Below the pieces are notes generated by a model. It was not told where the DNA came from, ran no database searches, and was given only the letters and a program-made list of their open reading frames with translations. From the sequence record PQ671644.1: a stretch of 64,000 nt of DNA; one strand, 5' to 3'. The translations under genes and the position numbers were made by a program. Below are positions 1-30,710 of this stretch, in pieces (the stretch's first letter is position 1; the number at the start of each line of letters is the position of its first letter). The stretch is from Escherichia phage DCP80.

Positions 1-111
1 TGTTCATAATTTTCTCTTTGTGTTTGGTTGATATGATAATGATACACCCTTTTGATGAGGTTGTAAACCCCTTATTGCAAATACATCTGGCATTGAAACA
101 AATAAATGCCA
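1..111. repeat. Exact 111-nt copy of 30600..30710 (block-end self-overlap or direct repeat)
   Basis: Base-for-base identity of 1-111 with 30600-30710. The second copy abuts the N10 gap. The repeat contains an early-type promoter on the minus strand (GTTTACA-17nt-TATCAT, 39-67). Confidence 0.95.
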
Positions 112-236
112 AATGACAATTGGTAAAACACCAGATGATGAACTGCAACAAATGGTATCTGATTACAAGTGCTTGATTTATAACAAACAGGAAACACCAG
201 GTACATCTGGCATTGAAACAAATAAATGCCAGATGT
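82..236. repeat. Two copies of a 30-mer, the second inside a 10-bp-stem inverted repeat
   Basis: tacatctggcattgaaacaaataaatgcca occurs at 82-111 and 202-231. acatctggca (203-212) pairs with tgccagatgt (227-236). Confidence 0.9.
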
Positions 237-802
237 ATGCCAAATGTAATTTCTGCGGACTGTTGATAGTAATTCTTGTTTAGAAAAAACCCATGCAGAT
301 TAATAGTTTAGAGAGCAAAAACAAGCCTTTCAAAAACAGTCACTCGGCTGCAAAACCCTTACTTAATAAGTCAACACCTGGTTCCGCCTTCGGCGTCACT
401 AATACTGCCACTCAATAAAAATCATAAGCGCAGCGACTAAGACAGGGCGTAGCCCGTGCCGAAGGCCTATTGCATGTACTAAGAACAATCAAAACAATAC
501 TGATTAATAATTGTAATGAGCCTTCGGCCACTCACTTCGTTCGTGATTATGATTTGATTAATTGATTACTAGATACAACTTGTATTGATAACAAATTGCT
601 TGTAGAATTGATTCTAAGAAGGTTTTAGATGAGACTAGTAGATTTTACTAGCATTAGAAGATTAGAAGCCCTACGGGCTCCGCAGGAGCTATATGATACT
701 AGTAAGAATCATCAATACAATTATCATTCGCTTCGCTCATGAGTTTCACATTTTATCTTCTGTGATTGATTGTTCTTAGTAGTAATGAATCTTGTTAGAA
801 CC

Positions 803-811
803 ATTATAACA
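803..811 (-). promoter_or_regulatory. Extended -10-like element TGTTATAAT (copy 1)
   Basis: The reverse complement of attataaca is TGTTATAAT. The same motif precedes the gene starting at 58584 (58611-58619). No ORF lies downstream. Confidence 0.3.
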
Positions 812-950
812 TGTAAATCTTAAAGCAAATAACAAACGCTTTAAATCTTAGTAGTATTAATGAGAACAATTATCATTCGCTTCGCTCATGAGTTTTACAT
901 TTCTTTTTTGTTGATTTGTTAATGATGATTCTTAGTAACCTTGTAGAACC

Positions 951-959
951 ATTATAACA
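951..959 (-). promoter_or_regulatory. Extended -10-like element TGTTATAAT (copy 2)
   Basis: Second copy, inside the 149-bp tandem repeat. Confidence 0.3.
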
Positions 960-1259
960 TGTAATTTTTGAAGCAATAAAGATTGGATTGTTCTTAGTAG
1001 TATCAATTAGCACCTGCGGTGCGCCTTCGGCATAGAATTTTTAAAGTCAATTTTATTAGAAGTTTTTACAAGCTATTGATTTGATTAGTATTAATTAATC
1101 ATCTTGTGTTGAAATTGCTGTTGTAAGTTATTGATTTGATTGATGAATTTAAAAACTGATAAAAATATATCAAAAAGGTAAGACGTGTGTCTTAGTGTAC
1201 CAAAATGTGAAGGCCCGAAGGGACTGAACTGTCATCATGTTGTTGAAATTTGATGCTGT

Positions 1260-1267
1260 TATAAATA
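1260..1267 (+). promoter_or_regulatory. T4-type late promoter TATAAATA
   Basis: gTTATAAATAaat lies 20 nt upstream of the ATG at 1287, followed by SD aagagg. Confidence 0.7.
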
Positions 1268-1286
1268 AATAAAAAGAGGAAACACA

Positions 1287-1469
1287 ATGGATATCAAAAA
1301 ACTTTCTGAAGTTGCATTAGGTAAATGGAATCACCCAGCACCGCGGGTGTCAAAGTACGAAACGGATTTGCTGATAAATTCTGTGATGGATTATCTGTCG
1401 TACAGAGGTATCAAGCATGAAGAAATTCATGTTCAACGTTTGAAGAAATTCTTTGAAGGTAAAAAATGA
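1287..1469 (+). CDS. Hypothetical late protein (60 aa)
   Basis: ORF with an SD, directly downstream of the late promoter. First gene of the packaging and head operon. Confidence 0.5.
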   Translation: MDIKKLSEVALGKWNHPAPRVSKYETDLLINSVMDYLSYRGIKHEEIHVQRLKKFFEGKK

Positions 1470-1744
1470 AATTTTATATCTACGATTACAAAAACCAATT
1501 AAGAACCAACCAGATTGTTCGTACTGGTGATTTGAACCATCAGAACCCTAACGTTTATTCAATCAAGATATACGGTACGAAAACACAACTTGAACAAAAT
1601 CCGGACCAGCTAATCAAAGCTGCTCTGCGTCGTATCAGCGAACAATTCGTAGATACAACTTACATCATTCCTGAGGTTGAAATCCAGATAACTGGTGGAT
1701 TGAAATCTTATGCTGAAATTTTTGTGAGGACTTATGAACATTGA
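1466..1744 (+). CDS. Hypothetical late protein (92 aa)
   Basis: ATGA start/stop overlap with the upstream ORF. Its end overlaps the terminase start. Confidence 0.5.
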   Translation: MKFYIYDYKNQLRTNQIVRTGDLNHQNPNVYSIKIYGTKTQLEQNPDQLIKAALRRISEQFVDTTYIIPEVEIQITGGLKSYAEIFVRTYEH

Positions 1745-3716
1745 AGAAAATTTGAGTGTTGAATTCCCTGAAGAAGTTGAACAAGAACAATTCAACCCTG
1801 TAGTTGAACGTATGAAAATTAAAAACATAATCCAGAGAGTATCAAAGTATATCAAAGCTCCTGAAGTGTGTAAGCCATCAGAATGGGTTGAGCGTAATTT
1901 GTATTTCCCTGATGGTCCGATGGCTAACCAACCGATGAAGCTTGATAACTTCCAGAAGGGAATGATTGATTCCATCAACGAAGGCAAGGTTAAAATTATT
2001 TTCATGACCTCCGCACAGATAGGAAAGACAACTGTTCTTAATGGTATGTTGTTCTGGAAATCTGCAATCGAAGGTGGAAACGTTGGTATCGCACAGGCAA
2101 CAGGCAAGGAAGTGTCTAACTGGTTGAACAGTAAGATAAGACCAATGATTGAAGTCTCCCCTGTTATGAAAGACCTGGTTGCGTCAAAAGCTGACCGTGA
2201 TAAATCAAACAACGAATCACGTATCGACCTTATGAACGGTGGTACATGGTTCATGATGTCATTAGGTTCCCCTACGCACCTGCGTGGTAAGACATTACCA
2301 ATGATTCTGATGGACGAAGTTGAAGGCGCAGAAGAATCTGAAGAAGGTTCTCCTATTAACCTGGCTGCCAAACGTGCAACGACTTTCCAGGACGAAGCGA
2401 GATTGATTATTTGCTCAACGCCAAATACGAAGTACGGTCCTATCAATAAAGAATTCGAAGCTTCTGATAAACGATACTTCATGGTTGATTGCCCCCATTG
2501 TGGTCATAATCACAGGATTACGTTTAAAGAGTGTATTAAATTCAATATGATACGTGAACAAGGTAAAGAGATTCCTGATGTTGATTCAGCTGTTCAAATC
2601 TGTCCTTCATGTGAACAGACCATAACAGATATCCAACGTACACGTATGATTCATAACGGTAAATGGGTAGCAACTAATCCAAACTCAAGCTCCATTGGAT
2701 TCCATATCTCTGCTCTTTATTCTCCGCGAAACTCCGTAAAAGGAATCGTGGAAGAGTATAAACAAGCGAGAGCATCGTTTGATGTTAAAAGTTTTTACAA
2801 CACAGTTCTGGGTGAACCATGGTCTGACGGAAACGAAAACATTGAGCTGCATGTTATTGATTCATTAAGAGAACCTATTGGATTGGAAAACATACCTGAT
2901 GATGTGTTGTTCTTAACAGCGGGCGTTGACCAACAGAAAGACCGTTTAGAAATTACAATCTTCGGTCACACAAAACATAAGCTGTACGTATTATCACACA
3001 AATCCATCCACGGACAGAACCTTGAATTGCATAACGACCCGGCATACAAAGGACTATATAATTACATAAGATTACCGTTCACAACTTGTACAGGTCGTAA
3101 GTTGACATTAGCACGAGTTAACATGGACTCCGGTAACGGTCGAGCAACGAAGGTAATTTATTCTTTTGCGCAGAAATGGAACAATATAAAGCCTATCAAA
3201 GGTGCATCAAAAGTTGAAGCTCCGTTTATTCCACCAAAATCTTCAACATCAGGTGGTTATGAATTATGGATGATTGGTGTTAACGAAGGCAAAAACAAAG
3301 TTCGTGAAATTCTTGCATCAAACATAAATGAGGCTGATACTCCTGAACTGGAATTGTCATTGTCTGATGATTTACCTGATGATTATGCTGAACAGTTGTT
3401 ATCAGAAGAAGTTGTCAAATCTGGTACAGCCAGACGCTGGGTAATCAGAAAAGGTGGTGGCCGAAATGAGTGCCTTGATACGTTTGTTTACGGATTAGCT
3501 GCTAGATTTCAAGTACTTAATACAAGTAATTGGGGATTCTGGGAAAAACTGAAAGACAAGAATGAAAAAACTGAGCAAATATCTCAAGAAGAAATTGATG
3601 AATCGGTAGAAACAGGTGTTGTTAACTATGTTGATATTAAACCTGAGAAACCAAAAGTTCAAAGACCACAACGTCCGCAAAGACCAAGGCCAACAACACA
3701 AAGAAGGAGATTCTAA
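1734..3716 (+). CDS. Terminase large subunit, lambda GpA family
   Basis: Matches remembered lambda gpA blocks: MTSAQIGKTT (Walker A region), GSPINLAAKR..STP, CPHCGHNH...CPSCEQ, GFHISALYSP, FYNTVLGEPW, LTAGVDQQKDRLE, IKPIKGAS and RNECLDTFVYGLAA. Confidence 0.93.
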   Translation: MNIEENLSVEFPEEVEQEQFNPVVERMKIKNIIQRVSKYIKAPEVCKPSEWVERNLYFPDGPMANQPMKLDNFQKGMIDSINEGKVKIIFMTSAQIGKTTVLNGMLFWKSAIEGGNVGIAQATGKEVSNWLNSKIRPMIEVSPVMKDLVASKADRDKSNNESRIDLMNGGTWFMMSLGSPTHLRGKTLPMILMDEVEGAEESEEGSPINLAAKRATTFQDEARLIICSTPNTKYGPINKEFEASDKRYFMVDCPHCGHNHRITFKECIKFNMIREQGKEIPDVDSAVQICPSCEQTITDIQRTRMIHNGKWVATNPNSSSIGFHISALYSPRNSVKGIVEEYKQARASFDVKSFYNTVLGEPWSDGNENIELHVIDSLREPIGLENIPDDVLFLTAGVDQQKDRLEITIFGHTKHKLYVLSHKSIHGQNLELHNDPAYKGLYNYIRLPFTTCTGRKLTLARVNMDSGNGRATKVIYSFAQKWNNIKPIKGASKVEAPFIPPKSSTSGGYELWMIGVNEGKNKVREILASNINEADTPELELSLSDDLPDDYAEQLLSEEVVKSGTARRWVIRKGGGRNECLDTFVYGLAARFQVLNTSNWGFWEKLKDKNEKTEQISQEEIDESVETGVVNYVDIKPEKPKVQRPQRPQRPRPTTQRRRF

Positions 3717-4201
3717 TGGCTGAAATTACAAATCCCGATGTTACCTTATACATCGGTTCTGAACTAACTGTTACTATCAAGGGCTCCCATGGGGCCTTTG
3801 GACGTAATGACGGTGAAACATATGGTTTAGAAAACGGTATAAATAAAATCAATACAGACAATCTGACACCAGGTGTTTACACGTTAGTTGATTATGCTGA
3901 TACAATTGAATTCACACGTTATGCTGTGAAATCTCCGTTCGGTAAACAATCTCAACTTGAACAAATTAAAGAAATGATTCGCGCAATCAGAGCTTGTTTG
4001 TTAGCACGTGTGAACGGTGATGATGCATATCTTCAAAGCATGGCTTCAGATGGTTATACATTTGCTTATGCTTCTGTCATGGAGCTTGAAGAATTGTTAT
4101 CTGCAAACGAACGCAGATTAGCAAGAGCCAAACAAGCAGATGACATTAAGAAAGGTAAATCACCTATGAGAACAATTAAAGCGAGGTTCCGTCATGCTTA
4201 A
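3716..4201 (+). CDS. Head-tail joining protein with a gpW-like C-terminal domain
   Basis: Sits between terminase and portal, as lambda W does. The C-terminal roughly 80 aa resemble the gpW pattern (QLEQIKEMIRAIRACLL..., ...VMELEELL). The N-terminal roughly 75 aa are extra. Confidence 0.45.
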   Translation: MAEITNPDVTLYIGSELTVTIKGSHGAFGRNDGETYGLENGINKINTDNLTPGVYTLVDYADTIEFTRYAVKSPFGKQSQLEQIKEMIRAIRACLLARVNGDDAYLQSMASDGYTFAYASVMELEELLSANERRLARAKQADDIKKGKSPMRTIKARFRHA

Positions 4202-5735
4202 TCCATTTAAAGTCTTCAAAAGAAATGGTATAAATAAAGCTATTAAAAAGAAACAACGTGATGAACAAAAATTACGAATCATCAACGATTCACCACGAAG
4301 TCAAATTCGTGCTCTGGCTGTACAGTCTTCACGTTTAACAGAAACATTTGAACAAGATATGATTCGCGGTTCTATTAACCCTGCGATTCGTCTTGGAAAT
4401 CAGGCTTTAATGGACCAGGCCCAAACAATGGCTGTACAATCTGTTTACGGTAAAAAAGCTGTTCAATACAGTATCGACCAGGTTGTTGGTGCAGAGGGAA
4501 TTCTGCCTATGCCGATTGTTATGAAAAATAAAGAACTTGATGAAGCACTGAACGATGAAATCAGTTATGAATTTGATAAGTGGGCACGTAAAGCTTCTAA
4601 ATTTTCAACCAACGGACAAATGAACTTCCGTCAATTCCAACAGCAAATGGAAGCATCAAGATTTATTTTTGGTGAAGCTTTTGCGATTATCGAAGAAGAT
4701 GATTATGGAATTCGTGTTGAGGTAATTTCTCCGCAACGTTGTCGAATGAATTATTCCGAAAAGACCAAAGAAGGTAACTATATCATCGATTCAATCGAGT
4801 ATACCCCTAGTGGTCGCCCTGTAGCTTATTATTTTGAAATTCTTGACGTAATGGCAAACGATTCCATCACTGGTAATAAATTCCGTGTTGATGCTGATGA
4901 TTGTTTCCACTATTTCAAACCAAACGTTCCAGGACAACGACGTGGGATTTCTGAATTCGCACCTGTTATTAAAGAGTTGAACCAGTTGGATGAATTTACG
5001 TTTTCTACAATCGTTCAAAAACGTATGGCTTCTAACAGCATGGGATTCATTACAACAGATGCAAACGGTCACGATTCAATTGATATTGAAATGGACGATG
5101 AAGCTGATGATGTTTATCAAGAGCCGGATATTATCCAAGAATTTGAAGCTGGTACGATGCACCAGTTAGCCGCTGGTCAAGACATTAAACAAATTACAGC
5201 AACACAAGGAGCTGATGATTATGTCGCGTTTAACTCCGCTATGGAATCAAAAATCGCAATGGGTTTTGGATTCTTTAAACAGGGTTTTCTTGGTGATACC
5301 AGTTCAATTAACTATTCCTCTGCTCGATTTGGTGATGCACAGCAACGTAATATGATTAAATCAACACAATCAACTTTGCGTGAATCTGTTCTGGAACCAT
5401 TATATGAGCGTTGGCTTGAGTGGATGTATATGCAAGGGAAATTGGTCAAATCAGACCGAATGGTTGAGTTTATTGCAGTTAATACAGATTGGATTTATCC
5501 TAAATCTGAGAGCATCGACCCAATGAAAGACCTTGATATCGAGATTAAAGCCGTTGAAGCTGGTATGCGCACCCGTCGTGATGCAATTACAAGACTTGGT
5601 GGTGACGATGTTGATGCAACTTTTGCTGGTATCGAAGCTGAACAAGGTTTACGCGTTCCGAAGAATGAACAACAGTTGGCTGCAGTATCTGCTCCTGCAG
5701 AAATCGCCGCCGGGGTCTCCGAAGAAGGTGTATAA
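4194..5735 (+). CDS. Portal protein, lambda gpB family
   Basis: 513 aa, immediately after the GpA and W-like genes. Blocks QRRGISEFAPVIKELNQLD and INYSSARFGDAQQRN...WLEW resemble lambda gpB. Confidence 0.85.
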   Translation: MLNPFKVFKRNGINKAIKKKQRDEQKLRIINDSPRSQIRALAVQSSRLTETFEQDMIRGSINPAIRLGNQALMDQAQTMAVQSVYGKKAVQYSIDQVVGAEGILPMPIVMKNKELDEALNDEISYEFDKWARKASKFSTNGQMNFRQFQQQMEASRFIFGEAFAIIEEDDYGIRVEVISPQRCRMNYSEKTKEGNYIIDSIEYTPSGRPVAYYFEILDVMANDSITGNKFRVDADDCFHYFKPNVPGQRRGISEFAPVIKELNQLDEFTFSTIVQKRMASNSMGFITTDANGHDSIDIEMDDEADDVYQEPDIIQEFEAGTMHQLAAGQDIKQITATQGADDYVAFNSAMESKIAMGFGFFKQGFLGDTSSINYSSARFGDAQQRNMIKSTQSTLRESVLEPLYERWLEWMYMQGKLVKSDRMVEFIAVNTDWIYPKSESIDPMKDLDIEIKAVEAGMRTRRDAITRLGGDDVDATFAGIEAEQGLRVPKNEQQLAAVSAPAEIAAGVSEEGV

Positions 5736-5738
5736 ATA
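5731..5738 (+). promoter_or_regulatory. T4-type late promoter TATAAATA
   Basis: Overlaps the portal stop codon, 50 nt upstream of the ATG at 5789. A hairpin at 5749-5768 follows. Confidence 0.6.
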
Positions 5739-5788
5739 AAGGTATAACGGGACTTCTAACGAGGTCCCAAAAAATAAGGACAAAAACA

Positions 5789-7789
5789 ATGTCGCAAACA
5801 ATCAGATTAAAACGTGAAATTTCTGTAGAGAAAATTCAGGCTGATGAAGACGGGATTTATGAAATTGCATTTTCTTCTGAAACCCCTGTTGAACGTCAGA
5901 TTGATACTCGTCACGGTCCACAAATTGTGAATGAAATTCTCATGCACACAGGTCCGGAAAACGCAGATTTAGAGCGTATAAATAATAATGCAAGCTTGCT
6001 GTTTAACCACAATTTCGACAACCATTTAGGTGTTGTTGTTCCTGGTTCAGTACGTATTGACAATGATAAAGTTGGCCGCGCTAAAGTAAAATTTTCAAGC
6101 GTTGGACAATTAGCACAAGAGATTAAAGCCAAGGTCGATGAAGGCACAATCTCAAAAATTTCGTTTGGATACGACATTAACGAGTATGATGTTGTTGGTG
6201 ATGACATGCTTGTTTCTCGTTGGGCACCATATGAAATTTCTTTCGTCACTGTCCCGGCAGATGATAAGGTTGGCCTCGGCCGCAGTATAAATAATATTGT
6301 AATTAACACAAATAAGGAAAAACGAATGAAACGTTACGAAGATTTTGAAATTGAAGACATCGTTGAACTGTCACGTGAAGAACTCGCTGATATGACAATC
6401 GCTGAAATCGAAGCCCTGGCTGAAGATGTACGTGCTAAGCGTGAAGAATTGCTTGACGAAGTTGAAGACGCTGAGAAAGAAGAAAAAGTTACCGATGAAG
6501 AAGATGCTGACTACGACAAAGCTGAAGGCAAAGATGCAGAAGCTAAAGTTGAAGATAAAAAAGCCGAAGGCATCGAAGACGAACTCACTGCTGAAGAGCG
6601 TGAAGAAGAAATCATCGAAATTGAAGAAATCGCTGAACGATACAAAATCGGTCGCGGAGAAGTTCGCAAAGCCATCGCAAGTGGCATGACTGCTCGTCAG
6701 TTCAAACGTTCTATTAAACCATCTAAAAACAAAAAGGAAATTCGTACTATGACTACCTCTATCGCTAAAGATACCCAGAAAAACCTCGAAGCTCGTTTTG
6801 ACCTGGCTGAAGTAACCCGTTCACTTGCTGCTGGTAAAGACATTAAAGGCGCTGCTGCTGAGTACTCTCAGGAAATGACTCGTAAACGTCAGAACGCAGG
6901 TCGTGACATTAACGGTCGTGCATATATCCCGGTAAGTGCTCTGCAAGGTCAGCGCGCAGTAAACACCGTTCCTACCGTTGCAAATATCGAACAGCACTAC
7001 GTTGATTACAACAGCTTTGTTGAATTGCTGCTCAAACCAACTGTAATTGGTAAACTGGGTGTTAACTTCCAGACCGGTCTGACCACTCCTTACGATGTAC
7101 CGAAACAAACTTCCAGCTCTGTTGATGCGTTTGGTTTCGTTGCTGAAAACGGTGACTCTCCTGAAGGCGAAAGCGGATTTGACATCATCAAATTCATGCC
7201 GCACACCTTTACTGGTGGTAACCCGATTTCTCGTCAGGCTCTTAACACCATGCCTAACCTGGCAAGCTTCATCTCTAACCACATCGTAGAACAATCTCGT
7301 TCTAAGATTCAAGGTCTGATGTTTGGTTCTGCTACTGACCCGGTTGCTTCTGGTGCTAACGCTCCGCAGAGCATCATCGCTCAGTTGGTTGCTAAGCAGA
7401 TTGGTATGACCTACAAAGAATTCGTTACCCTGGCTGCTGAAGCTGAAGGTAAAGGCGTTGCAATGGACCGCTTCAAGTATCTGATTGCTTCTGCACTTGG
7501 TGGTGAACTGAAATCCACTCTGCGTGATGCTGCTGTTGCTGGTTACATCATCGATGATGAAAACCGTATCGGTGGTCATGATGTAGTTACCTCTGGTCTG
7601 GTTAAACCTGGTCAGATTCTGTCTGGTGACTTCTCTGCAATCACTGTTGCTGAATGGGAAGGTCTGGCACTGGATATGGACGACACGACCTATCGTAACA
7701 AAGGCGCTATCGTTCCGCGTGTTTGGTGTGATATCGATTGGAAAGTTACTGCTGACGACCGTCTGTTCTTGTTCGAAAAGACAGCATAA
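5789..7789 (+). CDS. Single ORF fusing an HK97-type prohead protease, an acidic scaffold (delta-like) region and an HK97-fold major capsid protein
   Basis: The N-terminus has U35/S78 protease motifs (LLFNHNFDNHLG, ISFGY, YEISFVTVPAD). Residues about 180-320 are an E/D/K-rich coiled coil. The C-terminal roughly 345 aa are capsid-like with strong codon bias. Confidence 0.8.
   Translation: MSQTIRLKREISVEKIQADEDGIYEIAFSSETPVERQIDTRHGPQIVNEILMHTGPENADLERINNNASLLFNHNFDNHLGVVVPGSVRIDNDKVGRAKVKFSSVGQLAQEIKAKVDEGTISKISFGYDINEYDVVGDDMLVSRWAPYEISFVTVPADDKVGLGRSINNIVINTNKEKRMKRYEDFEIEDIVELSREELADMTIAEIEALAEDVRAKREELLDEVEDAEKEEKVTDEEDADYDKAEGKDAEAKVEDKKAEGIEDELTAEEREEEIIEIEEIAERYKIGRGEVRKAIASGMTARQFKRSIKPSKNKKEIRTMTTSIAKDTQKNLEARFDLAEVTRSLAAGKDIKGAAAEYSQEMTRKRQNAGRDINGRAYIPVSALQGQRAVNTVPTVANIEQHYVDYNSFVELLLKPTVIGKLGVNFQTGLTTPYDVPKQTSSSVDAFGFVAENGDSPEGESGFDIIKFMPHTFTGGNPISRQALNTMPNLASFISNHIVEQSRSKIQGLMFGSATDPVASGANAPQSIIAQLVAKQIGMTYKEFVTLAAEAEGKGVAMDRFKYLIASALGGELKSTLRDAAVAGYIIDDENRIGGHDVVTSGLVKPGQILSGDFSAITVAEWEGLALDMDDTTYRNKGAIVPRVWCDIDWKVTADDRLFLFEKTA
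6286..6293 (+). promoter_or_regulatory. Internal late promoter cassette inside the protease-capsid ORF
   Basis: tataaataatattgtaattaacacaaataaggaaa is nearly identical to the intergenic cassette at 13165 (tataaataatattgtaaattaaccccaaataaaaggaaa). It is followed by an SD and an in-frame ATG at 6326. Confidence 0.6.
6326..7789 (+). CDS. Nested in-frame product: scaffold(delta)-major capsid protein (487 aa)
   Basis: M180 of the long ORF is preceded by aaggaaaaacga and by the internal TATAAATA. This is analogous to the lambda C/Nu3 nested arrangement and to HK97 gp5 with its delta domain. Confidence 0.55.
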   Translation: MKRYEDFEIEDIVELSREELADMTIAEIEALAEDVRAKREELLDEVEDAEKEEKVTDEEDADYDKAEGKDAEAKVEDKKAEGIEDELTAEEREEEIIEIEEIAERYKIGRGEVRKAIASGMTARQFKRSIKPSKNKKEIRTMTTSIAKDTQKNLEARFDLAEVTRSLAAGKDIKGAAAEYSQEMTRKRQNAGRDINGRAYIPVSALQGQRAVNTVPTVANIEQHYVDYNSFVELLLKPTVIGKLGVNFQTGLTTPYDVPKQTSSSVDAFGFVAENGDSPEGESGFDIIKFMPHTFTGGNPISRQALNTMPNLASFISNHIVEQSRSKIQGLMFGSATDPVASGANAPQSIIAQLVAKQIGMTYKEFVTLAAEAEGKGVAMDRFKYLIASALGGELKSTLRDAAVAGYIIDDENRIGGHDVVTSGLVKPGQILSGDFSAITVAEWEGLALDMDDTTYRNKGAIVPRVWCDIDWKVTADDRLFLFEKTA

Positions 7790-7796
7790 ACCTAAT

Positions 7797-7928: not shown

Positions 7929-7930
7929 GT

Positions 7931-23592: not shown

Positions 23593-24144
23593 ATGAGAGA
23601 CCCTAATAAAGGTAAAGCTCGGAAGGTCAAGGAAGACCTTCAAAAGTGGGCGATTAAGGAAGATGACGTTTTCAGTAAGAAATTAACAAAGGCTTCCAAG
23701 CTGGCATCAGTTCAGTTACAGAGATATATCAACGGTAACATCAAAGGAGGTGCAACACCTTTTACACAGAAAGCAGTGGGATTCCAATTTAGATATGATA
23801 AGTTTGGTTCCTGGAACAGAATCTATATAAGAGATGCACAAGCGGCTTATCTTGGTGACCTGATTGATGATGACAAACGCTTTAAGAAGTTTGTACCAAT
23901 CGCTGGCAGGAACACAAACAAGTTCGGTAACATAATTGGTTTAAGGAATTTCAGAAACCTTATTCCCGTTAAACAGATGCATAACGGACGAATGAGAACA
24001 ATTCTCATCAAGCCATCAGCTAAAGGTATAAAAAGATTCGTTGCTGTACAGAAGGAAATTTCCCCACGGAAAACATTAGGTTCATGGAAAGAAATGGAAA
24101 AGAGAATGATAAATAACATTAACAGAGTCATTCACTCCAAATAA
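23593..24144 (+). CDS. Hypothetical basic protein (183 aa)
   Basis: ORF only. Confidence 0.5.
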   Translation: MRDPNKGKARKVKEDLQKWAIKEDDVFSKKLTKASKLASVQLQRYINGNIKGGATPFTQKAVGFQFRYDKFGSWNRIYIRDAQAAYLGDLIDDDKRFKKFVPIAGRNTNKFGNIIGLRNFRNLIPVKQMHNGRMRTILIKPSAKGIKRFVAVQKEISPRKTLGSWKEMEKRMINNINRVIHSK

Positions 24145-24157
24145 ACTAAGGATTAAC

Positions 24158-24457
24158 ATGTACAAGTACAGATATTATAACGAAGAATCATTACTAACGT
24201 TAAAGATAAACGGTGTGAATCCACCAGGTTGTTCATTACCAGAACCAGCTAAAAGTTTAAAGAAATTCCAGAAGGTAAATGATAACGATTACTTTGCTGT
24301 GTCAACTTTGTTCAAGACACCAAAGGTTTCTTATAAGAAAGGGGAAGTTGTTAAACTAGAAGGATTCCCGTTAAGGAGAGAGGCTGTGTGTATCGGTGAT
24401 TTGTTACACACAGAGAAGGGGTACAGAATTAAAAGTTATATCTTCCAATTCTGTTAA
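24158..24457 (+). CDS. Hypothetical protein (99 aa)
   Basis: ORF with SD aagga. Confidence 0.45.
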   Translation: MYKYRYYNEESLLTLKINGVNPPGCSLPEPAKSLKKFQKVNDNDYFAVSTLFKTPKVSYKKGEVVKLEGFPLRREAVCIGDLLHTEKGYRIKSYIFQFC

Positions 24458-24464: not shown

Positions 24465-24776
24465 TTAGTTGAGTTTTTTACAATTAGTTATCAATAAACC
24501 GTTGACATAGAATTCACGTTCCCCACCACGAATCCATGTACCATACATGATTCCATCTCGTTCACGTTTCAGAGCAGGGATTTTCTTCCCGTCGATTTCA
24601 ACAGAACTAGAGCGCAAAGGTGGTGAACGGAATTCCTCTGAACTGAAAGATTCGATAACTGTAACGAACTCCACTTTAATCTCAGGACTGTAACACTGGA
24701 ACTTTTGTACTTCCATTGCATAACTTGATGCAGAGATAAGAAGCAATGATGCGATGATTGTTTTTAAAGTTTTCAT
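24465..24776 (-). CDS. Secreted/periplasmic protein (103 aa)
   Basis: Signal peptide MKTLKTIIASLLLISASSYA followed by a cleavage-like site. Confidence 0.5.
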   Translation of the reverse strand: MKTLKTIIASLLLISASSYAMEVQKFQCYSPEIKVEFVTVIESFSSEEFRSPPLRSSSVEIDGKKIPALKRERDGIMYGTWIRGGEREFYVNGLLITNCKKLN

Positions 24777-24868: not shown

Positions 24869-25333
24869 ATGTCAGAAGCTTTTAACATGCTGATGAAAGA
24901 TGAAGGCATCGAGTATCATCTTTATAAATGCACGCAAGGATACTGGACAATCGGGATTGGTCATATGATTTCCCGTGATAAACAAACAGCTGAACGATTC
25001 CTTAATGAGAAATTTGGGAAGTGTGTAATAAGTAAGGAGCAGGCTATCCAGTTGTTCAAGCAAGATTATAATCATGCAGTATTAGGTGCACAGAGTATCG
25101 TAAGATTAGACACCTACCGTGAATTAGCATTGTCTAATATGGTTTTCCAGATGGGACTTGGTGGTGTACTGAAGTTCAAGAAAATGATAGCTGCACTGAA
25201 GATACAAGACTGGAACGAAGCTTATAAGCAGGCTTTAGATTCTACATGGTATAAACAAACACCTAATCGTGCCAAACGTGTGGCCGAGGTACTAAGAGAT
25301 GGGAAACAAGCATATGTCAAACATTACTCCTGA
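24869..25333 (+). CDS. e: Lysozyme (T4 gp e family endolysin)
   Basis: Aligns with T4 lysozyme: DEG....Y.....GY.TIGIGH, NMVFQMG and WY.QTPNRAKRV. Confidence 0.92.
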   Translation: MSEAFNMLMKDEGIEYHLYKCTQGYWTIGIGHMISRDKQTAERFLNEKFGKCVISKEQAIQLFKQDYNHAVLGAQSIVRLDTYRELALSNMVFQMGLGGVLKFKKMIAALKIQDWNEAYKQALDSTWYKQTPNRAKRVAEVLRDGKQAYVKHYS

Positions 25334-25759: not shown

Positions 25760-26251
25760 ATGTCAACCAAAGACCCGATTTATCTTAACCAAAAACAAAT
25801 CTCCGAATCCTACGGAGTTACGCGCCAGACGATTGCAGAGTGGCAGAAGCGTGAAAATCCAATTCCGTGGATTGCTGGACGGGGATATCCGATGCCTGAT
25901 GCCGGAGTTTGGATTGCAGAAAATTTTATAAAAACTTTAAGACAGAACAACGAAGCACAGGATTTTAATTATCACAAGACAAGGAAGATGGCAGCAGAAG
26001 CGGACATTGCTGAAAGGGAAAACATGCTCGAGGCGCAATCCGTTATCAGAACAGATTTCGTAGAAGAGGAGTTAAGGAATTTTGTTACAAGAGTTAAGGA
26101 AACCCTCCGCGTCATTCCATTGAAGTATGCAGAAGATATTGCTATAAGAGCAACAAGCACATCAGAAGTTAAGAAGGCATTAAGGGAAGCGATTGATAAA
26201 TCCCTGAACGAGATTGACCTGTTGATGTTGTTTGAAGAGCATGAAGAATAA
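25760..26251 (+). CDS. Terminase small subunit, lambda Nu1-like
   Basis: The N-terminal wHTH LNQKQISESYGVTRQTIAEWQKRENPI resembles lambda Nu1 VNKKQLADIFGASIRTIQNWQEQGMPV. YHKTRKMAAEADIAERENM resembles YERHRLTRAQADAQELKNA. Confidence 0.7.
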   Translation: MSTKDPIYLNQKQISESYGVTRQTIAEWQKRENPIPWIAGRGYPMPDAGVWIAENFIKTLRQNNEAQDFNYHKTRKMAAEADIAERENMLEAQSVIRTDFVEEELRNFVTRVKETLRVIPLKYAEDIAIRATSTSEVKKALREAIDKSLNEIDLLMLFEEHEE

Positions 26252-26292: not shown

Positions 26293-26532
26293 TCATTCCC
26301 ACTTAATCGTTGCTACTCGCTCATACACGAGACGTAAATCAATCTTTCCTTTTACGGTATATGTTCTTTGAACTTCCCCTTGTGCTTCCACTGTGAGGCT
26401 ATCAATTAATTCATCGTTTTGATACAATCGATATAGGTTTTTCTGACGGTTTGAAATTGTTAAAGTACGTTGAACTTCTTCTTTAGTATCTTCCAATTTA
26501 TGGAGAGCTTTTAGACTAGTTGATTCGTACAT
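26293..26532 (-). CDS. Hypothetical protein (79 aa)
   Basis: ORF with SD aaggaaa. Confidence 0.5.
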   Translation of the reverse strand: MYESTSLKALHKLEDTKEEVQRTLTISNRQKNLYRLYQNDELIDSLTVEAQGEVQRTYTVKGKIDLRLVYERVATIKWE

Positions 26533-26549
26533 AGTTTTCCTTTTTAAAG

Positions 26550-26563
26550 GGGACCGAAGTCCC
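26550..26563 (-). terminator. C(UUCG)G hairpin on the minus-strand transcript
   Basis: Plus strand gggaccgaagtccc. A T-run follows on the minus strand. Confidence 0.6.
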
Positions 26564-26890
26564 TTATGCGTATAAGTGTTTTTCTTTCTTACGAAGACAG
26601 TTTTCAGAAGCTGTCAGGAGCTGCAAGTTACTTGGAGCGTTGTTCTTGCGGTTAAAATCGATATGGTCAATGTGCATACCCTCAGGAACTTCAGAATCGT
26701 TATCAAGCATCCACACGATTCGGTGAGCATACTCGTTATTATGAACCGGGTGGAAAACATGGATATAACCAGAAGGTAATTCGTAACCAGCTTCTTTGCC
26801 AGCGTGCTTACCAGTGGTGTAAATCAGTTTGTCATCAACGATTGCATAGTGAGCTTTAACGATGTCGAGAGTAATTTTAGTACGTGCCAT
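26564..26890 (-). CDS. HNH endonuclease (108 aa), late-expressed
   Basis: AHRIVWML....PEGMHIDHIDFNRKNNAPSNLQLLTASEN (HNH_3-type). Has its own TATAAATA promoter and is convergent with the Nu1-like gene. Confidence 0.8.
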   Translation of the reverse strand: MARTKITLDIVKAHYAIVDDKLIYTTGKHAGKEAGYELPSGYIHVFHPVHNNEYAHRIVWMLDNDSEVPEGMHIDHIDFNRKNNAPSNLQLLTASENCLRKKEKHLYA

Positions 26891-26910
26891 TTGATATACC
26901 TTTTAAAAAT

Positions 26911-26932
26911 GAAGCACCGGAATTGATGCTTC
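26911..26932 (-). promoter_or_regulatory. Conserved 5'-leader hairpin, copy A
   Basis: mRNA gaagca-tcaattccgg-tgcttc, downstream of TATAAATAAAAGTATGAAAAC. The stem covaries with copy B while the loop is identical. Confidence 0.5.
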
Positions 26933-26947
26933 GCGTTTTCATACTTT

Positions 26948-26955
26948 TATTTATA
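26948..26955 (-). promoter_or_regulatory. T4-type late promoter TATAAATA
   Basis: The reverse complement reads gTTATAAATAaaagtatgaaaac, 58 nt upstream of the start at 26890. Confidence 0.7.
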
Positions 26956-26969
26956 ACAGCTTTTCGGGC

Positions 26970-27152
26970 TTATTCAGAAGTCAGAATAAATTTTTGATAC
27001 TGTTTACCAGTTATCTTGTATCTGATGAAGTTGAACAAATCGAACAAATATCCAAGAGGAATCAGAGCAATCAGAAGTGGTGCCATGATGAACATCAGGA
27101 TTGCTTGGATAACAAACAGAATTGTTTCACCCAGAAATTTTAAAATAAACAT
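26970..27152 (-). CDS. Small membrane protein (60 aa, 2 predicted TM)
   Basis: Hydrophobic ILFVIQAILMFIMAPLLIALIPLGYLF. Confidence 0.5.
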   Translation of the reverse strand: MFILKFLGETILFVIQAILMFIMAPLLIALIPLGYLFDLFNFIRYKITGKQYQKFILTSE

Positions 27153-27164
27153 AGTTCTCCCGTT

Positions 27165-27178
27165 GGGGCCGAAGCCCC
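27165..27178 (-). terminator. C(UUCG)G hairpin (intercistronic)
   Basis: Plus strand ggggccgaagcccc. Confidence 0.45.
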
Positions 27179-27185
27179 AGATAAG

Positions 27186-27350
27186 TTAGCGAATTGATTT
27201 TTGTTCTTTAGCGCGATTCTTAATACCAAGTCCTTGCATCGTGGCTTCGATAACCTCGATTGCTTTAACACGTTTTTCATACTCTGCCAGAGTGATTTGT
27301 TTTTTGGCGAATTGTACATAAAGGGCAGACATAGCTTCGTAACTGTTCAT
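27186..27350 (-). CDS. Hypothetical protein (54 aa)
   Basis: Start moved to M18 of the track ORF. The longer ORF would run through its own promoter and leader. Confidence 0.45.
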   Translation of the reverse strand: MNSYEAMSALYVQFAKKQITLAEYEKRVKAIEVIEATMQGLGIKNRAKEQKSIR

Positions 27351-27368
27351 AGGATTTCTCTTTAAAGG

Positions 27369-27390
27369 GAGACACCGGAATTGATGTCTC
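27369..27390 (-). promoter_or_regulatory. Conserved 5'-leader hairpin, copy B
   Basis: mRNA gagaca-tcaattccgg-tgtctc, downstream of TATAAATAAATGTATGAAAAC. Confidence 0.5.
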
Positions 27391-27406
27391 GTTGTTTTCA
27401 TACATT

Positions 27407-27414
27407 TATTTATA
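27407..27414 (-). promoter_or_regulatory. T4-type late promoter TATAAATA
   Basis: The reverse complement reads gTTATAAATAaatgtatgaaaac. Confidence 0.7.
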
Positions 27415-27422
27415 ACGGTCTT

Positions 27423-27713
27423 TTAACGCTTTTTAAAACCACCGAAGAAGGTGCCAGATAATGATTGAGCGATTTTAGAAGCTTCATAGTTGTTTGATTC
27501 AACTTCACCATACTTCCAACCTTTACCAAGGAGTTTCAACCATTTCAATCTAGCGATTGTCACATCATGACCTGCGCAAAGGAGTTCAAATTCTTCCAGT
27601 TCATCATTAAGTAGATAAGCAAGTTTTTCTTTATCCACAGCGTATGTCCAATTGGTACCTTCGAATTCGAAGAAAACTGAATCACCGTGGGTTTCTACAT
27701 TTTTAATCTTCAT
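27423..27713 (-). CDS. Hypothetical protein (96 aa)
   Basis: ORF, start/stop-coupled to the upstream gene. Confidence 0.5.
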   Translation of the reverse strand: MKIKNVETHGDSVFFEFEGTNWTYAVDKEKLAYLLNDELEEFELLCAGHDVTIARLKWLKLLGKGWKYGEVESNNYEASKIAQSLSGTFFGGFKKR

Positions 27714-27904
27714 TAGATTTCCTTTACAATAAATTTATAAGTTACTTGGGACTCTTTAAAGACAGCTTCCGTTGCCCATTCTTCAGGTTTTTTCGAAAGC
27801 TCTGTGTGATAAAGCATTGCAGCTTCACCCTCTTGTGCTTCCAAAGCTTCTATGTAGCTTCGGCCTTCTTTAAGTTTAATAACACCGCAATCTATGATTC
27901 TCAT
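27713..27904 (-). CDS. Hypothetical protein (63 aa)
   Basis: ORF with ATGA overlap with the upstream small ORF. Confidence 0.5.
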   Translation of the reverse strand: MRIIDCGVIKLKEGRSYIEALEAQEGEAAMLYHTELSKKPEEWATEAVFKESQVTYKFIVKEI

Positions 27905-28050
27905 TTCTTGTCCAGTAGTTGTTGGTAAAATTCGATATGAGCATAAACATCTTGAATCCCGTGTAGGTAATCATCAAAGGTGATGTCCAGGTCTTCAAAG
28001 AAGTTATGATAAATTTCTTGTAGTTTGGTATAACCGTTTTCGTTAGTCAT
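27901..28050 (-). CDS. Hypothetical small protein (49 aa)
   Basis: ATG 26 nt downstream of the TATAAATA at 28076, with SD cgagg. Below the track cutoff. Confidence 0.4.
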   Translation of the reverse strand: MTNENGYTKLQEIYHNFFEDLDITFDDYLHGIQDVYAHIEFYQQLLDKK

Positions 28051-28075
28051 AAGTACCTCGTTGTTTTCATAATTT

Positions 28076-28083
28076 TATTTATA
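28076..28083 (-). promoter_or_regulatory. T4-type late promoter TATAAATA
   Basis: The reverse complement reads agTATAAATAaaattatgaaaac. Confidence 0.65.
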
Positions 28084-28087
28084 CTGA

Positions 28088-28216
28088 TTAATACTGGTTT
28101 AAATGGCGCCACAACGTGGTTCTGGATATACTATGTTTCTTCAGAACAGATTTCTTATCTTTACGACGAGCATTTTTATACTCGTCTGCAATTTGATTTA
28201 ACTTCTCGTTGGTCAT
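28088..28216 (-). CDS. Possible small HTH protein (42 aa)
   Basis: TAATG-coupled to the upstream ORF. Contains SISRTTLWRHL, an HTH-like segment. Confidence 0.3.
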   Translation of the reverse strand: MTNEKLNQIADEYKNARRKDKKSVLKKHSISRTTLWRHLNQY

Positions 28217-28947
28217 TAAAATTTTACGCATAACAGGTTGTCCAGTTGGTCTTCATGGGTTTCGATTAAGATTTCAGATTCCAGAGCTTCAGCAGCCTGA
28301 ATCATTGTGGCAGTATCACCACCAGCTTTAGCAACGTGAATCACAGTATCGAATTTACGTTTGTAAAGATTTTTCAGTTTAACTTCTTTAGTTTTCTGTG
28401 CAAAGTGTTTTTCAGATTTACGTTTAACTTCAACCAGTTCTTCTTTAACAACTTCAACTTCTTCTTCAGCTTCCTGGATAGCAACGTTTGCTTTCTTCAG
28501 AGCAGCATGTTGTGCACGAATGATTTCCATCATTTCTTCCACAGATAATTCCTCAAGATTGTTGATGTCAAATTTGACAACTTCTTTCTTTTCAACATGG
28601 TGATTAGAATTAACGGTATCGATTTCGTAAATCCAAGTTTTGTCACCGCGACGAGTCATTTCCAGGTTCTGCTGGATATAACCTTTACCTACTTTGTGAA
28701 TCACACGAGCTGAATTCCAATCAGTATGAACTACACAGATTGAATTTTCAAATTCTGCAACAAAGTAATCTCCCTCACCAAAATCAACTGCTTTAGCTTT
28801 AACTGCACGATACAGAGAACGATTAGCTGAACCAATTTCTTGTAACAAAGATTTAACAGAACTAGCATGAATTACTTTGGTTGCATTTTGTACAGACATG
28901 TTGCTTTCAGCTTGGTTTTCGCATTTTTTAAAAAGTTTGATAATCAT
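28216..28947 (-). CDS. Hypothetical protein with an acidic coiled-coil centre (243 aa)
   Basis: ORF with SD aaggaaa. Confidence 0.55.
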   Translation of the reverse strand: MIIKLFKKCENQAESNMSVQNATKVIHASSVKSLLQEIGSANRSLYRAVKAKAVDFGEGDYFVAEFENSICVVHTDWNSARVIHKVGKGYIQQNLEMTRRGDKTWIYEIDTVNSNHHVEKKEVVKFDINNLEELSVEEMMEIIRAQHAALKKANVAIQEAEEEVEVVKEELVEVKRKSEKHFAQKTKEVKLKNLYKRKFDTVIHVAKAGGDTATMIQAAEALESEILIETHEDQLDNLLCVKF

Positions 28948-28986
28948 GTGTTTTCCTTTATTTGTTAATCGTGTTATTATTTAGAA

Positions 28987-29136
28987 TTAAAAAGTGATGT
29001 GTAATTCTTTGTTGATTTCAAAGATGACAGTTGCTAATGTCAAGTTGTGTTCTTTACACCAATCAGCACGTTTAGCCGGTGGCAATTTGTTTAACGCACA
29101 GAAGATTTTCATTAATTTAATCTGATAAGAATTCAT
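28987..29136 (-). CDS. Hypothetical small protein (49 aa)
   Basis: ATG with SD gaggt, 73 nt downstream of the TATAAATA at 29209. Confidence 0.35.
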   Translation of the reverse strand: MNSYQIKLMKIFCALNKLPPAKRADWCKEHNLTLATVIFEINKELHITF

Positions 29137-29208
29137 GGTGACCTCAAGTGTTTCGATGTTTGTTAGGGTTTAAAAAAGAGGTTGTTCACCTCGTCGCTTT
29201 CATACATT

Positions 29209-29216
29209 TATTTATA
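29209..29216 (-). promoter_or_regulatory. T4-type late promoter TATAAATA
   Basis: The reverse complement reads gtgTATAAATAaatgtatgaaagc. Confidence 0.65.
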
Positions 29217-29225
29217 CACTAATTT

Positions 29226-29750
29226 TCGGCTCATTAGACAATCAGAAAAGTTCAATCCGGATTCAATCGCGTCAGGAGAATTTCCATGATAATATTTATC
29301 TCTTTATACTCACAAAAAACATTGAAACACATTTTGCAGTTTTTGGACTTTTAATCAAAAAAGGCTGTTTTTGATATTTCCGGGGGGTGCCTATGCCTTC
29401 CGGAGCACTTTTTGAGGCAAAAGTTATAAGAAACCTATTTTAATATATCAAAAGGTAATAACAAAGGCCTTTTTTCCCTCAAAAAACGTCAGAAAAAGGC
29501 TGTTTTTTCAGCTTATTTTGAGCCTTTTTTGAAGGTTCATTTTTGGGACTTTTAATCAAAAAACAAGGGAATTTTTCGGGAGCAGTACAGGGGTACTATC
29601 AGATGATAGGAGCTATCATTTAGAAGGGAGAATTGTGATTACTTATGACCGTTATACGATTGTATCGCGATTATTTGGTCAAATAACGACGAAATAATCA
29701 AAATAAATCATCGAAACACTTAGAAAACAGGCTGTTTTAGGTATAAAAAT
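29226..29750. repeat. ORF-free roughly 525-bp region with dispersed repeats
   Basis: ggacttttaatcaaaaaa occurs at 29345-29362 and 29546-29563. aaaa(a/c)aggctgtttt occurs at 29358, 29493 and 29724. T/A-tract rich. Confidence 0.8.
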
Positions 29751-29766
29751 GGCCCCTTTCGGAGCC
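29751..29766 (-). terminator. Hairpin plus T-run terminator (minus strand)
   Basis: mRNA ggctccgaaaggggcc followed by attttt, 7 nt after the stop at 29773. Confidence 0.6.
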
Positions 29767-29772
29767 TAAAAT

Positions 29773-29940
29773 TTATTTCATACGCAGGTATTTTTCATAA
29801 CTAACTTTTGACAGAGCCAAATAGTAAGCTGCATCTTTTTCTCCCGATAATTTACCTTCAGCAACTGTTGCACAATCTTCTTTGAAAGTTGCTTCCCAGG
29901 AAAATCCATCAAGCCAATCGGAAAATTGTTGTTCGTTCAT
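29773..29940 (-). CDS. Hypothetical protein (55 aa)
   Basis: Start moved to M14 (SD gaggt), adjacent to the stop of the upstream ORF. Confidence 0.45.
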   Translation of the reverse strand: MNEQQFSDWLDGFSWEATFKEDCATVAEGKLSGEKDAAYYLALSKVSYEKYLRMK

Positions 29941-29941
29941 A

Positions 29942-30148
29942 TTAACCTCTGTAATGTCTGTTGTAATGGTGTACTGCAATTTCTGTGCAAAGGTCTTCGA
30001 AGACCAATGGGATTATGTTTTCTCGGTAGACAACATAACTGTACTGTCTGTAGGTGTAGACCTCTTTATATTTCTCGAAGAACATAAACAGGTCTTGATT
30101 AGCTGTAACTTCTAACGGGGTGATTTTCCCGGCTGCATCAACTATCAT
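29942..30148 (-). CDS. Hypothetical protein (68 aa)
   Basis: ORF with SD aaggagg. Confidence 0.5.
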   Translation of the reverse strand: MIVDAAGKITPLEVTANQDLFMFFEKYKEVYTYRQYSYVVYRENIIPLVFEDLCTEIAVHHYNRHYRG

Positions 30149-30288
30149 ACTTCCTCCTTATTAACTTAATAATAGGCTCCCGCTCAGAAACCTATGATAA
30201 GGTACCACACATGAATTTAATCAAAGGTCTTCACATCACTAAAGACCTTTTGTTAAACACATGAATCAGGTCATCACTCCTGATACTT

Positions 30289-30606
30289 TTATTTATAACG
30301 GGATTTATTCATCCATTCAAATATGCCAGGGTTCCATTCGATGTTACCCATCGCTACATAATGATTGATTGCTTCTCGCAGAGACACCTGGAAGAATTCG
30401 GATTCGTCAAGTAATGAAACAATGATTTCCCCTTGTGCCTGTAAATCATCAACTGTCATCATGGAAAGAATTTCATATGCTGATTGAATTTCGTCTTCTG
30501 TGAAATCTGTGTCGAACCAATCATTAAGGTTATCATCAGATTTGTAATTATTGTAATAAGCCATACCTTCGATAACCAGATTGATAATTTCATTTACGTT
30601 GTTCAT
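30289..30606 (-). CDS. Hypothetical acidic protein (105 aa)
   Basis: Start moved to M55 of the track ORF. The longer ORF crosses the N gap and the promoter. Confidence 0.55.
   Translation of the reverse strand: MNNVNEIINLVIEGMAYYNNYKSDDNLNDWFDTDFTEDEIQSAYEILSMMTVDDLQAQGEIIVSLLDESEFFQVSLREAINHYVAMGNIEWNPGIFEWMNKSRYK
30290..30297 (-). promoter_or_regulatory. T4-type late promoter TATAAATA overlapping the upstream gene's stop
   Basis: The reverse complement reads cgTTATAAATAaaagtat. Confidence 0.55.
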
Positions 30607-30710
30607 AATTTTCTCTTTGTGTTTGGTTGATATGATAATGATACACCCTTTTGATGAGGTTGTAAACCCCTTATTGCAAATACATCTGGCATTGAAACAA
30701 ATAAATGCCA
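30600..30710. repeat. Second copy of the 111-nt repeat (identical to 1..111)
   Basis: See the feature at 1..111. Confidence 0.95.
30638..30666 (-). promoter_or_regulatory. T4-early-type sigma70 promoter
   Basis: ggTTTACA-17nt-TATCAT. The architecture is nearly the same as the promoter at 59314-59342 (ggtttaca.c..ca..aaaagggtgta..attatc). Confidence 0.6.

Follow-up and report, generated by a model that had tools for sequence, protein, structure and literature searches.

The 64,000-nt window of sequence record PQ671644.1 (Escherichia phage DCP80), the whole stretch of DNA analysed here, opens with a 30.6-kb contig, referred to below as block 1, which probably constitutes the entire genome of a virulent satellite virus dependent on T-even coliphages of the Gaprivervirus type. 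Block 1 encodes a full siphovirus-type virion set, endonuclease VII (Endo VII), a lysozyme, a Nu1/GpA-type terminase, an HNH endonuclease and approximately 20 orphan open reading frames (ORFs), an inventory that matches the one given by an earlier sequence-only reading of the window and to which a Nu1-like small terminase (TerS) gene at 25760-26251 can now be added. That reading had also proposed a ~30.6-kb chromosome that assembles a siphovirus particle from its own genes while relying on a T4-like helper for replication and late transcription. Support for this proposal comes from the closure of the unit, the lack of detected replication and transcription factors, the T4-type promoters of block 1 and the presence of MotA in the co-assembled contigs, observations from which we infer the dependence on a helper.

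The window consists of six contigs and N padding; all six blocks begin at a position equal to 1 modulo 60, which identifies the N runs as padding between separate contigs. The terminal 111 nt of block 1 (30600-30710) are identical to positions 1-111, with the match ending at an N10 pad, resulting in a unit of 30,599 bp, as had been read from the letters alone. The accompanying suggestion, that an exact end overlap of this kind is typical of a de Bruijn assembler acting on a circular or terminally redundant component, is borne out by the neighbouring contigs, as the end of block 2 coincides with the reverse complement of an internal site of block 3 over exactly 111 nt, and an overlap of just this length is found between the end of block 3 and block 2. 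The value 111 is therefore the k of the assembler. Closure was then recovered elsewhere: contigs of five other samples in Logan (L005-L009) each gave one unbroken ~99% match running from window position 746 through 1 to 30599 and on to ~25.5 kb, and a 30,478-bp MEGAHIT contig in ENA (k141_1078491, hereafter L014) represents another permutation that spans the junction and terminates inside the start of the large terminase (TerL) gene. A further Logan contig of 29,973 bp (SRR29999939_1290, hereafter L011) covers nearly the whole unit. The Logan contigs stop at window positions 746 and 873, i.e. within a ~149-nt tandem repeat. Joining the ends also completes a minus-strand ORF of 105 amino acids (aa) at 30289-30606, for which the ATG and ribosome-binding site lie in the overlap. 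Since the junction is crossed both by the contigs of five other samples and by the differently permuted 30,478-bp contig, the closure of block 1 is genuine at the sequence level and is neither an artefact nor a flanking repeat; the ends of the packaged unit are presumably of cos type. The element was present in a viral-particle metagenome of bird faeces (one sample).

The alternative in which block 1 belongs to a larger genome, as a fragment or as a second segment, or in which the 111-nt identity is a flanking direct repeat or assembly artefact, would be compatible with its concatenation with T4-like contigs and with the fact that exact end overlaps can come from repeats. However, the overlap equals k, the junction is seamless in the five other samples and in the 30,478- and 29,973-bp contigs, no alternative flanks appear in any junction-crossing contig, and a related 31.6-kb contig (L058) has the same closed layout. 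Genomes of the type of Escherichia phage CJ20 (Gaprivervirus, 169.9 kb) are complete at 170 kb without block 1, leaving the idea of a second genome segment unsupported. These observations rule out a true flanking direct repeat or an embedding larger genome, both of which had been raised earlier, and the alternative as a whole is largely refuted and extremely improbable.

At the level of motifs, the genes of block 1 are wired to all three T4 temporal promoter classes. Block 1 contains 16 exact copies of the T4 late-promoter octamer TATAAATA, where 2.2 would be expected (Poisson, 1.7e-9), with all sites agreeing with gene direction (16/16, 3e-5), 10 of the 16 sitting 0-72 nt before the start codon of a gene in the same direction and several directly following a GGGACC-TTCG-GGTCCC-T-run terminator hairpin. 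Two perfect MotA-type middle promoters (aTTGCTT(T/C)A-12 nt-TATAAT), one in each copy of the tandem repeat, are located in a 1.26-kb non-coding region in which ~0.003 would be expected. Searches for the T4-type middle arrangement, a TGCTTtA box 12+/-1 nt before the -10 element, gave these two sites in block 1 and two in L058, and, as a positive control, the MotA-type pattern recovered plausible middle promoters in the T4-like blocks 3 and 4 of the window. For the early class, 55 nt of the overlap align at ~86% identity with a site located between genes in CJ20, VR7 and related phages, the cores of the CJ20/VR7 and block 1 promoters being almost the same and the aligned early promoter taking the form GGGGTTTACA-N17-TA(T/C)(C/T)AT, which in CJ20 comes after a terminator; the block 1 promoter also resembles a block 5 promoter at 59343. 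A generic sigma-70 promoter scan of positions 1-1400 did not rise above shuffled expectation.

The late and middle promoters were all conserved in variants from nine other samples (89-99% identical), and T4-type promoters were absent or at background in relatives with 59-68% identity in the major capsid protein (MCP), i.e. ~31-35-kb prophage regions and islands. A second lineage with this promoter set is represented by L058, a 31,592-bp MEGAHIT contig with 66% MCP identity and no integrase, which carries co-oriented late promoters along with its two perfect MotA-type promoters.

To determine which replication and transcription functions block 1 might encode, every ORF was scanned with PHROGs and/or Pfam and compared by tblastn with 50,697 phage records. 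No polymerase, helicase, primase, initiator, integrase, repressor or sigma factor was found at the level of sequence-detectable homology, in the small ORFs or elsewhere, in agreement with what the sequence-only reading had reported; nor did PHROGs or tblastn reveal any homolog of gp55, gp33, MotA or AsiA in block 1. There was likewise no detectable initiator/helicase loader or repressor/antiterminator module of the kind expected for an autonomous lambda/HK97-like phage, and the T4-type replication and virion core genes that mark the Straboviridae were absent from block 1 and were seen in blocks 2-6 and in CJ20. All ORFs longer than 250 aa are structural or packaging genes. The 20 small or unknown ORFs (2,010 aa in total), when concatenated, had no tblastn match in the same phage records; Rfam and tRNA scans of block 1 returned nothing, and no DnaA boxes were present in its non-coding regions.

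Two of the unknown ORFs were followed further. The 183-aa ORF has 50-57% identity to counterparts in integrated relatives from Klebsiella, E. coli and Serratia and, although of gp55 size, was ruled out as a sigma factor of that type because it is conserved in relatives without T4 promoters. For the 243-aa ORF, a search of 5.8 billion proteins gave two homologs only, IMG/VR nothing and a PDB profile search only noise, and the AlphaFold2 model of the protein (predicted local distance difference test, pLDDT, 54.6), a small beta-rich domain plus a long coiled coil, is too weak to interpret. None of the ORFs of the small-gene arm is common to the prophage-type relatives or islands; a syntenic cassette of 49-aa and 243-aa genes and a 47-aa helix-turn-helix (HTH) gene have their sole homologs in L057. 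This 23.8-kb contig (SRR23924977) is a fragment of a very divergent T4-superfamily phage without a nucleotide match to any known phage, and contains baseplate-hub and clamp-loader homologs, co-oriented TATAAATA sites and a MotA-type promoter. The 105-aa junction ORF is dispensable, as L014 lacks both this gene and its early promoter, having 52 nt (L014 8593-8645) in place of ~397 nt (window 30306-30703).

The co-assembled contigs supply a candidate for the helper. Blocks 2-6 are T-even DNA encoding rIIA/rIIB, topoisomerase II subunits, gp46/47, gp44/45, gp41, UvsX and MotA, and are 98% identical to CJ20, which encodes MotA, AsiA and gp33; at the DNA level, they show no relationship to block 1. 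Blocks 2 (30721-40993) and 3 (41041-49790) are ~96% identical reverse-complement variants of the rIIA/rIIB/denB region, each ending on a 111-mer internal to the other, which indicates at least two Gaprivervirus strains in the sample.

Block 1 also resembles the T4-like blocks in composition. Its tetranucleotide correlation is 0.83 with these blocks, compared to 0.71-0.80 with its own relatives and 0.57 with the E. coli chromosome, and it shares with them a complete avoidance of GATC, of which there are none in block 1 (108 expected) or in the whole 64-kb window, T4-like blocks included (~226 expected). None of the close variants has the site, nor does L058, and 50 kb of CJ20 contain a single copy (181 expected); the prophage-type relatives retain 16-62 sites. 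CTAG is strongly depleted in block 1 as well (18 versus 108 expected). A literature search did not find the absence of GATC in Gaprivervirus-type phages to have been reported. The loss of GATC from block 1 is read here as a sign of a virulent lifestyle matching that of the helper, not as proof of association.

The relatives of block 1 suggest where such an element could have come from. In E. coli, islands between ybiT and ldtB contain backbone genes collinear with those of block 1 at 27-59% aa identity, comprising the virion genes, Endo VII, the 183-aa and 99-aa ORFs, lysozyme and TerS, and related elements occur in Klebsiella, Enterobacter and Serratia; members of the group are ~31-35 kb long, with a GC content of ~39-41%. 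The likeness of the islands to block 1 extends to low GC, but they differ in being integrated, in carrying a serine recombinase, a GntR regulator and defence cargo (retron Ec67-type reverse transcriptase, TIR), in lacking an enrichment of T4-type promoters, and in having kept GATC. The integrated relatives have no annotated replication genes. Two islands of ~33-35 kb and low GC (L001 and L056) contain a complete virion module, an Endo VII-like gene and TIR cargo, with the retron Ec67-type reverse transcriptase also present in L001, and may themselves be integrated satellite viruses. In this scenario, the backbone of block 1 would derive from the ~31-35-kb integrated prophage-like elements of Enterobacteriaceae, the recombinase, regulator and cargo region would have been swapped for small genes partly common to T4-superfamily phages, and GATC would have been purged. 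A separate 30.5-kb relative (L003; 63% MCP identity, no T4 promoters) encodes, at 13830-17431, a fibre with T4 gp36/gp37 domains and a gp38-type adhesin, indicating that T-even receptor-binding modules circulate among the relatives of block 1.

The integrated state of these relatives, with their serine recombinase and GntR regulator, raises the possibility that block 1 is a helper-dependent element that does not rely on simultaneous co-infection but persists in its host without an integrase, e.g. in the form of a silent episome or pseudolysogen, awaiting the arrival of a T-even phage. Sigma-70-type early promoters driving the 105-aa ORF and an ORF with a signal-peptide-like sequence would fit such persistence, and the two conserved, repeat-rich non-coding regions could serve as plasmid-like cis sites. 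However, no partition, replication or immunity gene was found in block 1, no integrase was found, and a search of 5,426 complete genomes of E. coli, with their plasmids but not the plasmid collection itself, returned no copy of the element, making this lifestyle quite improbable.

Returning to the satellite virus reading, the following course of infection can be envisaged. The MotA/AsiA and gp55/gp33/gp45 proteins of a co-infecting T-even helper would switch on transcription of the element, the DNA of which would be copied by the replisome of the helper, possibly from R-loop primers at the tandem middle promoters, in the manner of T4 oriF/oriG, or by way of recombination-dependent replication. 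Endo VII would debranch the element DNA, and replication by either of these routes would explain why the gene has been retained. The element's own Nu1/GpA/HNH machinery would then package unit genomes into its own capsids. Taken together, the evidence tips modestly towards an undescribed, obligately virulent hyperparasite of T-even phages that builds its own siphovirus particle, cedes all replication and most transcription to a Gaprivervirus-type helper through that helper's early, middle and late promoters, probably uses a T4-style R-loop origin, and arose from integrated prophage-like elements of Enterobacteriaceae either on two or more occasions or with diversification into two or more lineages (30.6 and 31.6 kb).

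Several observations weigh against this account. Helper dependence is derived from absences and motifs, and the ~20 orphan ORFs could conceal a novel initiator or minimal sigma factor, with the model of the 243-aa protein too poor to judge. The absence of replication genes extends to the integrated relatives and may be a trait of the family, e.g. reflecting host-driven replication. Both middle promoters have an extended -10 element (TGnTATAAT) and the early promoter is of sigma-70 type, so a helper may not be needed for the expression of some genes. Avoidance of GATC, a common trait among virulent enterophages (PMC5014478), is no proof of a helper link. Co-occurrence with Gaprivervirus at the sample level is seen only for the assembly of the window, and weakly at the study level (adjacent run accessions).

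Much of this would also fit an autonomous small virulent siphovirus that uses host replication proteins or an unrecognised initiator or sigma-like factor among the orphan ORFs, its T4-like signals having arisen through promoter exchange or convergence and being read by its own or host factors. The ~20 ORFs without detectable homologs, the good sigma-70 elements of the middle and early promoters (extended -10, GTTTACA -35), the wide persistence of integrated relatives without annotated replication genes and a GATC loss typical of any virulent enterophage are all in keeping with this. Against it, TATAAATA is a poor sigma-70 -10 element with no -35 partner, and its occurrence as an exact 8-mer at 16 co-oriented sites is a signature of gp55; the MotA boxes stand at the correct 12-nt spacing and are conserved in two lineages; the largest orphan, at 243 aa, is predicted to be mostly coiled coil; and the searches above returned no homologs of the T4 transcription factors. 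Autonomy is accordingly regarded as unlikely, although it is the main rival of the satellite reading.

The genes that would build and fill the particle, and the remaining features of the unit, are listed in Table 1. A siphovirus-type particle is indicated as block 1 has no sheath gene. The terminase and capsid genes matched GpA/Nu1-type terminase and HK97-fold capsid families (PF05876/PF20454, a weak PF07471, and PF05065), and the encapsidation and virion machinery extends over TerS, TerL, portal, protease-MCP, tail tube, tape measure, tail tip and fibres. The closest cultured phages have only 27-30% identity in TerL and MCP and genomes of mostly 32-45 kb, and there was no nucleotide match to the 50,697 phage genomes, either in a megablast search of positions 1-25000 or in a blastn search of the fibre region. 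Look-ups of the exact protein sequences gave no record of the block 1 MCP or TerL, nor of rIIB of the candidate helper.

Table 1. Features of block 1, and of the adjoining candidate helper contig, in window coordinates.
Feature	Position	Strand	Remarks
Assembler k-mer overlap marking closure of the 30,599-bp unit	1..111	.	Identical to 30600-30710; junction-spanning contigs L005-L009, L014
T4-type early promoter, GTTTACA-17 nt-TATCAT	39..68 (also 30638-30667)	-	Directly upstream of 105-aa junction ORF
Two copies of 34-nt repeat, each with hairpin	82-115, 202-235	.	
Tandem ~149-nt repeat (700-848 / 849-997)	700..997	.	In 1.26-kb non-coding region
Iteron-like GATTGTTCTTAGTA	768, 924, 986; inverted at 477		
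MotA-type middle promoter, TGCTTTA-12 nt-TATAAT	803..827	-	Conserved in L014
MotA-type middle promoter, TGCTTCA-12 nt-TATAAT	951..975	-	Conserved in L011, L012, L014, L015, L017
Eleven exact TATAAATA late promoters	1260, 3838, 4229, 5731, 5977, 6286, 7931, 10595, 13165, 13736, 18212	+	Span 1260..18219
Two small ORFs (60, 92 aa) upstream of TerL	1287..1744	+	92-aa ORF conserved in L058
Large terminase, lambda GpA type	1734..3716	+	
161-aa head-tail joining-like protein	3716..4201	+	
Portal protein	4194..5735	+	
Prohead protease (S78)-major capsid fusion	5789..7789	+	
Two head-completion/connector-size ORFs (131, 140 aa)	7955..8753	+	
Two fibre proteins (699, 745 aa)	8760..13136	+	
Tail tube (164 aa) and two chaperone-size ORFs	13211..14462	+	
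GC-hairpin terminators	13711-13726, 18187-18202		Precede late promoters
Tape measure protein, 804 aa	14463..16877	+	
Distal tail (186 aa), hub-like (220 aa), DUF6950 (138 aa), J-like tail tip (1266 aa)	16905..22437	+	
153-aa protein	22472..22933	+	Hydrophobic N-terminal stretch; weak coiled-coil/spanin-like matches
Endonuclease VII, T4 gp49 family	22959..23426	+	
183-aa and 99-aa backbone ORFs	23593..24457	+	Conserved in prophage-type relatives
103-aa ORF	24465..24776	-	Only reverse-oriented gene of virion arm; hydrophobic signal-peptide-like N-terminus (from sequence)
Second early-type promoter, extended -10	24855	-	Precedes 103-aa reverse ORF
T4-type lysozyme	24869..25333	+	
Small terminase, weakly Nu1-like	25760..26251	+	
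Divergent arm, ~15 small ORFs	26293..30606	-	
HNH endonuclease	26564-26890	-	
Five exact TATAAATA late promoters	26948, 27407, 28076, 29209, 30290	-	Span 26948..30297
47-aa HTH ORF	28088-28231	-	
243-aa near-orphan ORF	28216-28947	-	
Second non-coding stretch, ~640 nt, in small-ORF arm	29137..29772	.	Repeated AAAAACAGCCTTTTT / GATTAAAAGTCC motifs
105-aa junction ORF	30289-30606	-	
MotA of co-assembled Gaprivervirus-type phage	30840..31448	-	Candidate helper; outside element

Within the protease-MCP fusion gene there is a nested in-frame ATG at 6326 (codon 180), preceded by a ribosome-binding site and the late promoter at 6286, and the leader following this promoter is almost identical to the tail-tube leader at 13165. 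Initiation at 6326 would yield a 487-aa product comprising a scaffold-like acidic coiled coil and the MCP without the protease domain, a nested arrangement that recalls lambda C/Nu3. Downstream of the five minus-strand late promoters lies a shared, conserved leader, aaNgTATGAAAaCaaCGAG (TATAAATAaaNgTATGAAAaCaaCGAG), and a hairpin often comes after it; this suggests a common 5' untranslated region element. The N-terminus of the 745-aa fibre has 47% identity to the N-terminal joint of CJ20 gp37, and the 153-aa protein is common to L058, with no homolog found in the integrated relative L056.

The two non-coding regions are possible sites of cis-acting functions. The tandem repeat is a candidate T4-type origin and/or cos-binding region. 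The stretch in the small-ORF arm is 96.3% identical in the most diverged variant, versus ~94.7% in the surrounding DNA, had no Rfam match, and may be an origin, packaging site, non-coding RNA locus or other cis element. In one variant (L010 1-393; SRR14520626), the DNA upstream of window position 1255 has been swapped for unrelated sequence encoding the C-terminus of an unknown protein, and L058 has a homing endonuclease at the equivalent place, marking the region upstream of the packaging genes as an insertion hot spot.

Few viruses have been studied as much as T4 and its relatives, and a full-text literature search found no description of a satellite of T-even phages. If the satellite reading is true, regulatory mimicry extending to the complete temporal set of helper promoters would clearly exemplify one way into parasitism, and the element would offer a natural tool to probe T4 middle and late transcription and origin-independent replication in trans. 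Such elements could also account for unexpected small siphovirus genomes binned with T4-like phages in viromes, and would be relevant to phage therapy, since sewage-derived T4-like preparations could carry them as passengers. On the same premise, the integrated relatives, which combine a recombinase and defence cargo with a lack of recognisable replication genes, point to a wider satellite family in Enterobacteriaceae that has gone unrecognised.

Compared with the T4 programme of sigma-70 early, MotA-AsiA middle and gp55-gp33-gp45 late transcription, the promoters of block 1 match the consensus at each stage (GTTTAC -35, TGCTTtA box, TATAAATA) and the terminator-then-late-promoter arrangement is the same, and a middle promoter followed by AT-rich DNA resembles T4 oriF/oriG. 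Block 1 differs from T4 in having none of the trans-acting factors and in virion genes that are lambda/HK97-like, not T4-like. Among known satellites, P4, phage-inducible chromosomal islands (PICIs), capsid-forming PICIs (cfPICIs) and PICI-like elements (PLEs) parasitise the life cycle of a helper; they integrate, have their own replication module (primase/helicase, ori) and take helper capsids and/or tails, with cfPICIs also making their own capsids. Block 1, in contrast, has neither an integrase nor replication genes and encodes a complete virion set. Phage satellite viruses are, to our knowledge, known so far from one Streptomyces system, and helper dependence of block 1 would extend them to enterobacteria and to myovirus helpers.

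The members of that system, MiniFlayer and MulchRoom (Flayer and Mulch systems), are the nearest precedent for block 1; they have their own terminase, portal, capsid and tail genes and an HNH endonuclease, without primase or other replication genes, and the family contains one temperate member, with an integrase and a GntR-like HTH protein, and one virulent member without a lysogeny module (PMC10690885). The likeness of block 1 to these viruses is one of features and lies in its own virion and encapsidation genes, the HNH endonuclease, the lack of replication genes and a helper-adapted composition; the host belongs to another phylum, and the helper is a T-even myovirus in place of a siphovirus of the BE cluster. 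In the Flayer system, helper dependence is experimentally supported and the evidence for adaptation is a codon usage matched to helper tRNAs (PMC10690885), whereas in block 1, where dependence is inferred only, adaptation takes the form of the helper's early, middle and late promoter classes together with the purging of GATC.

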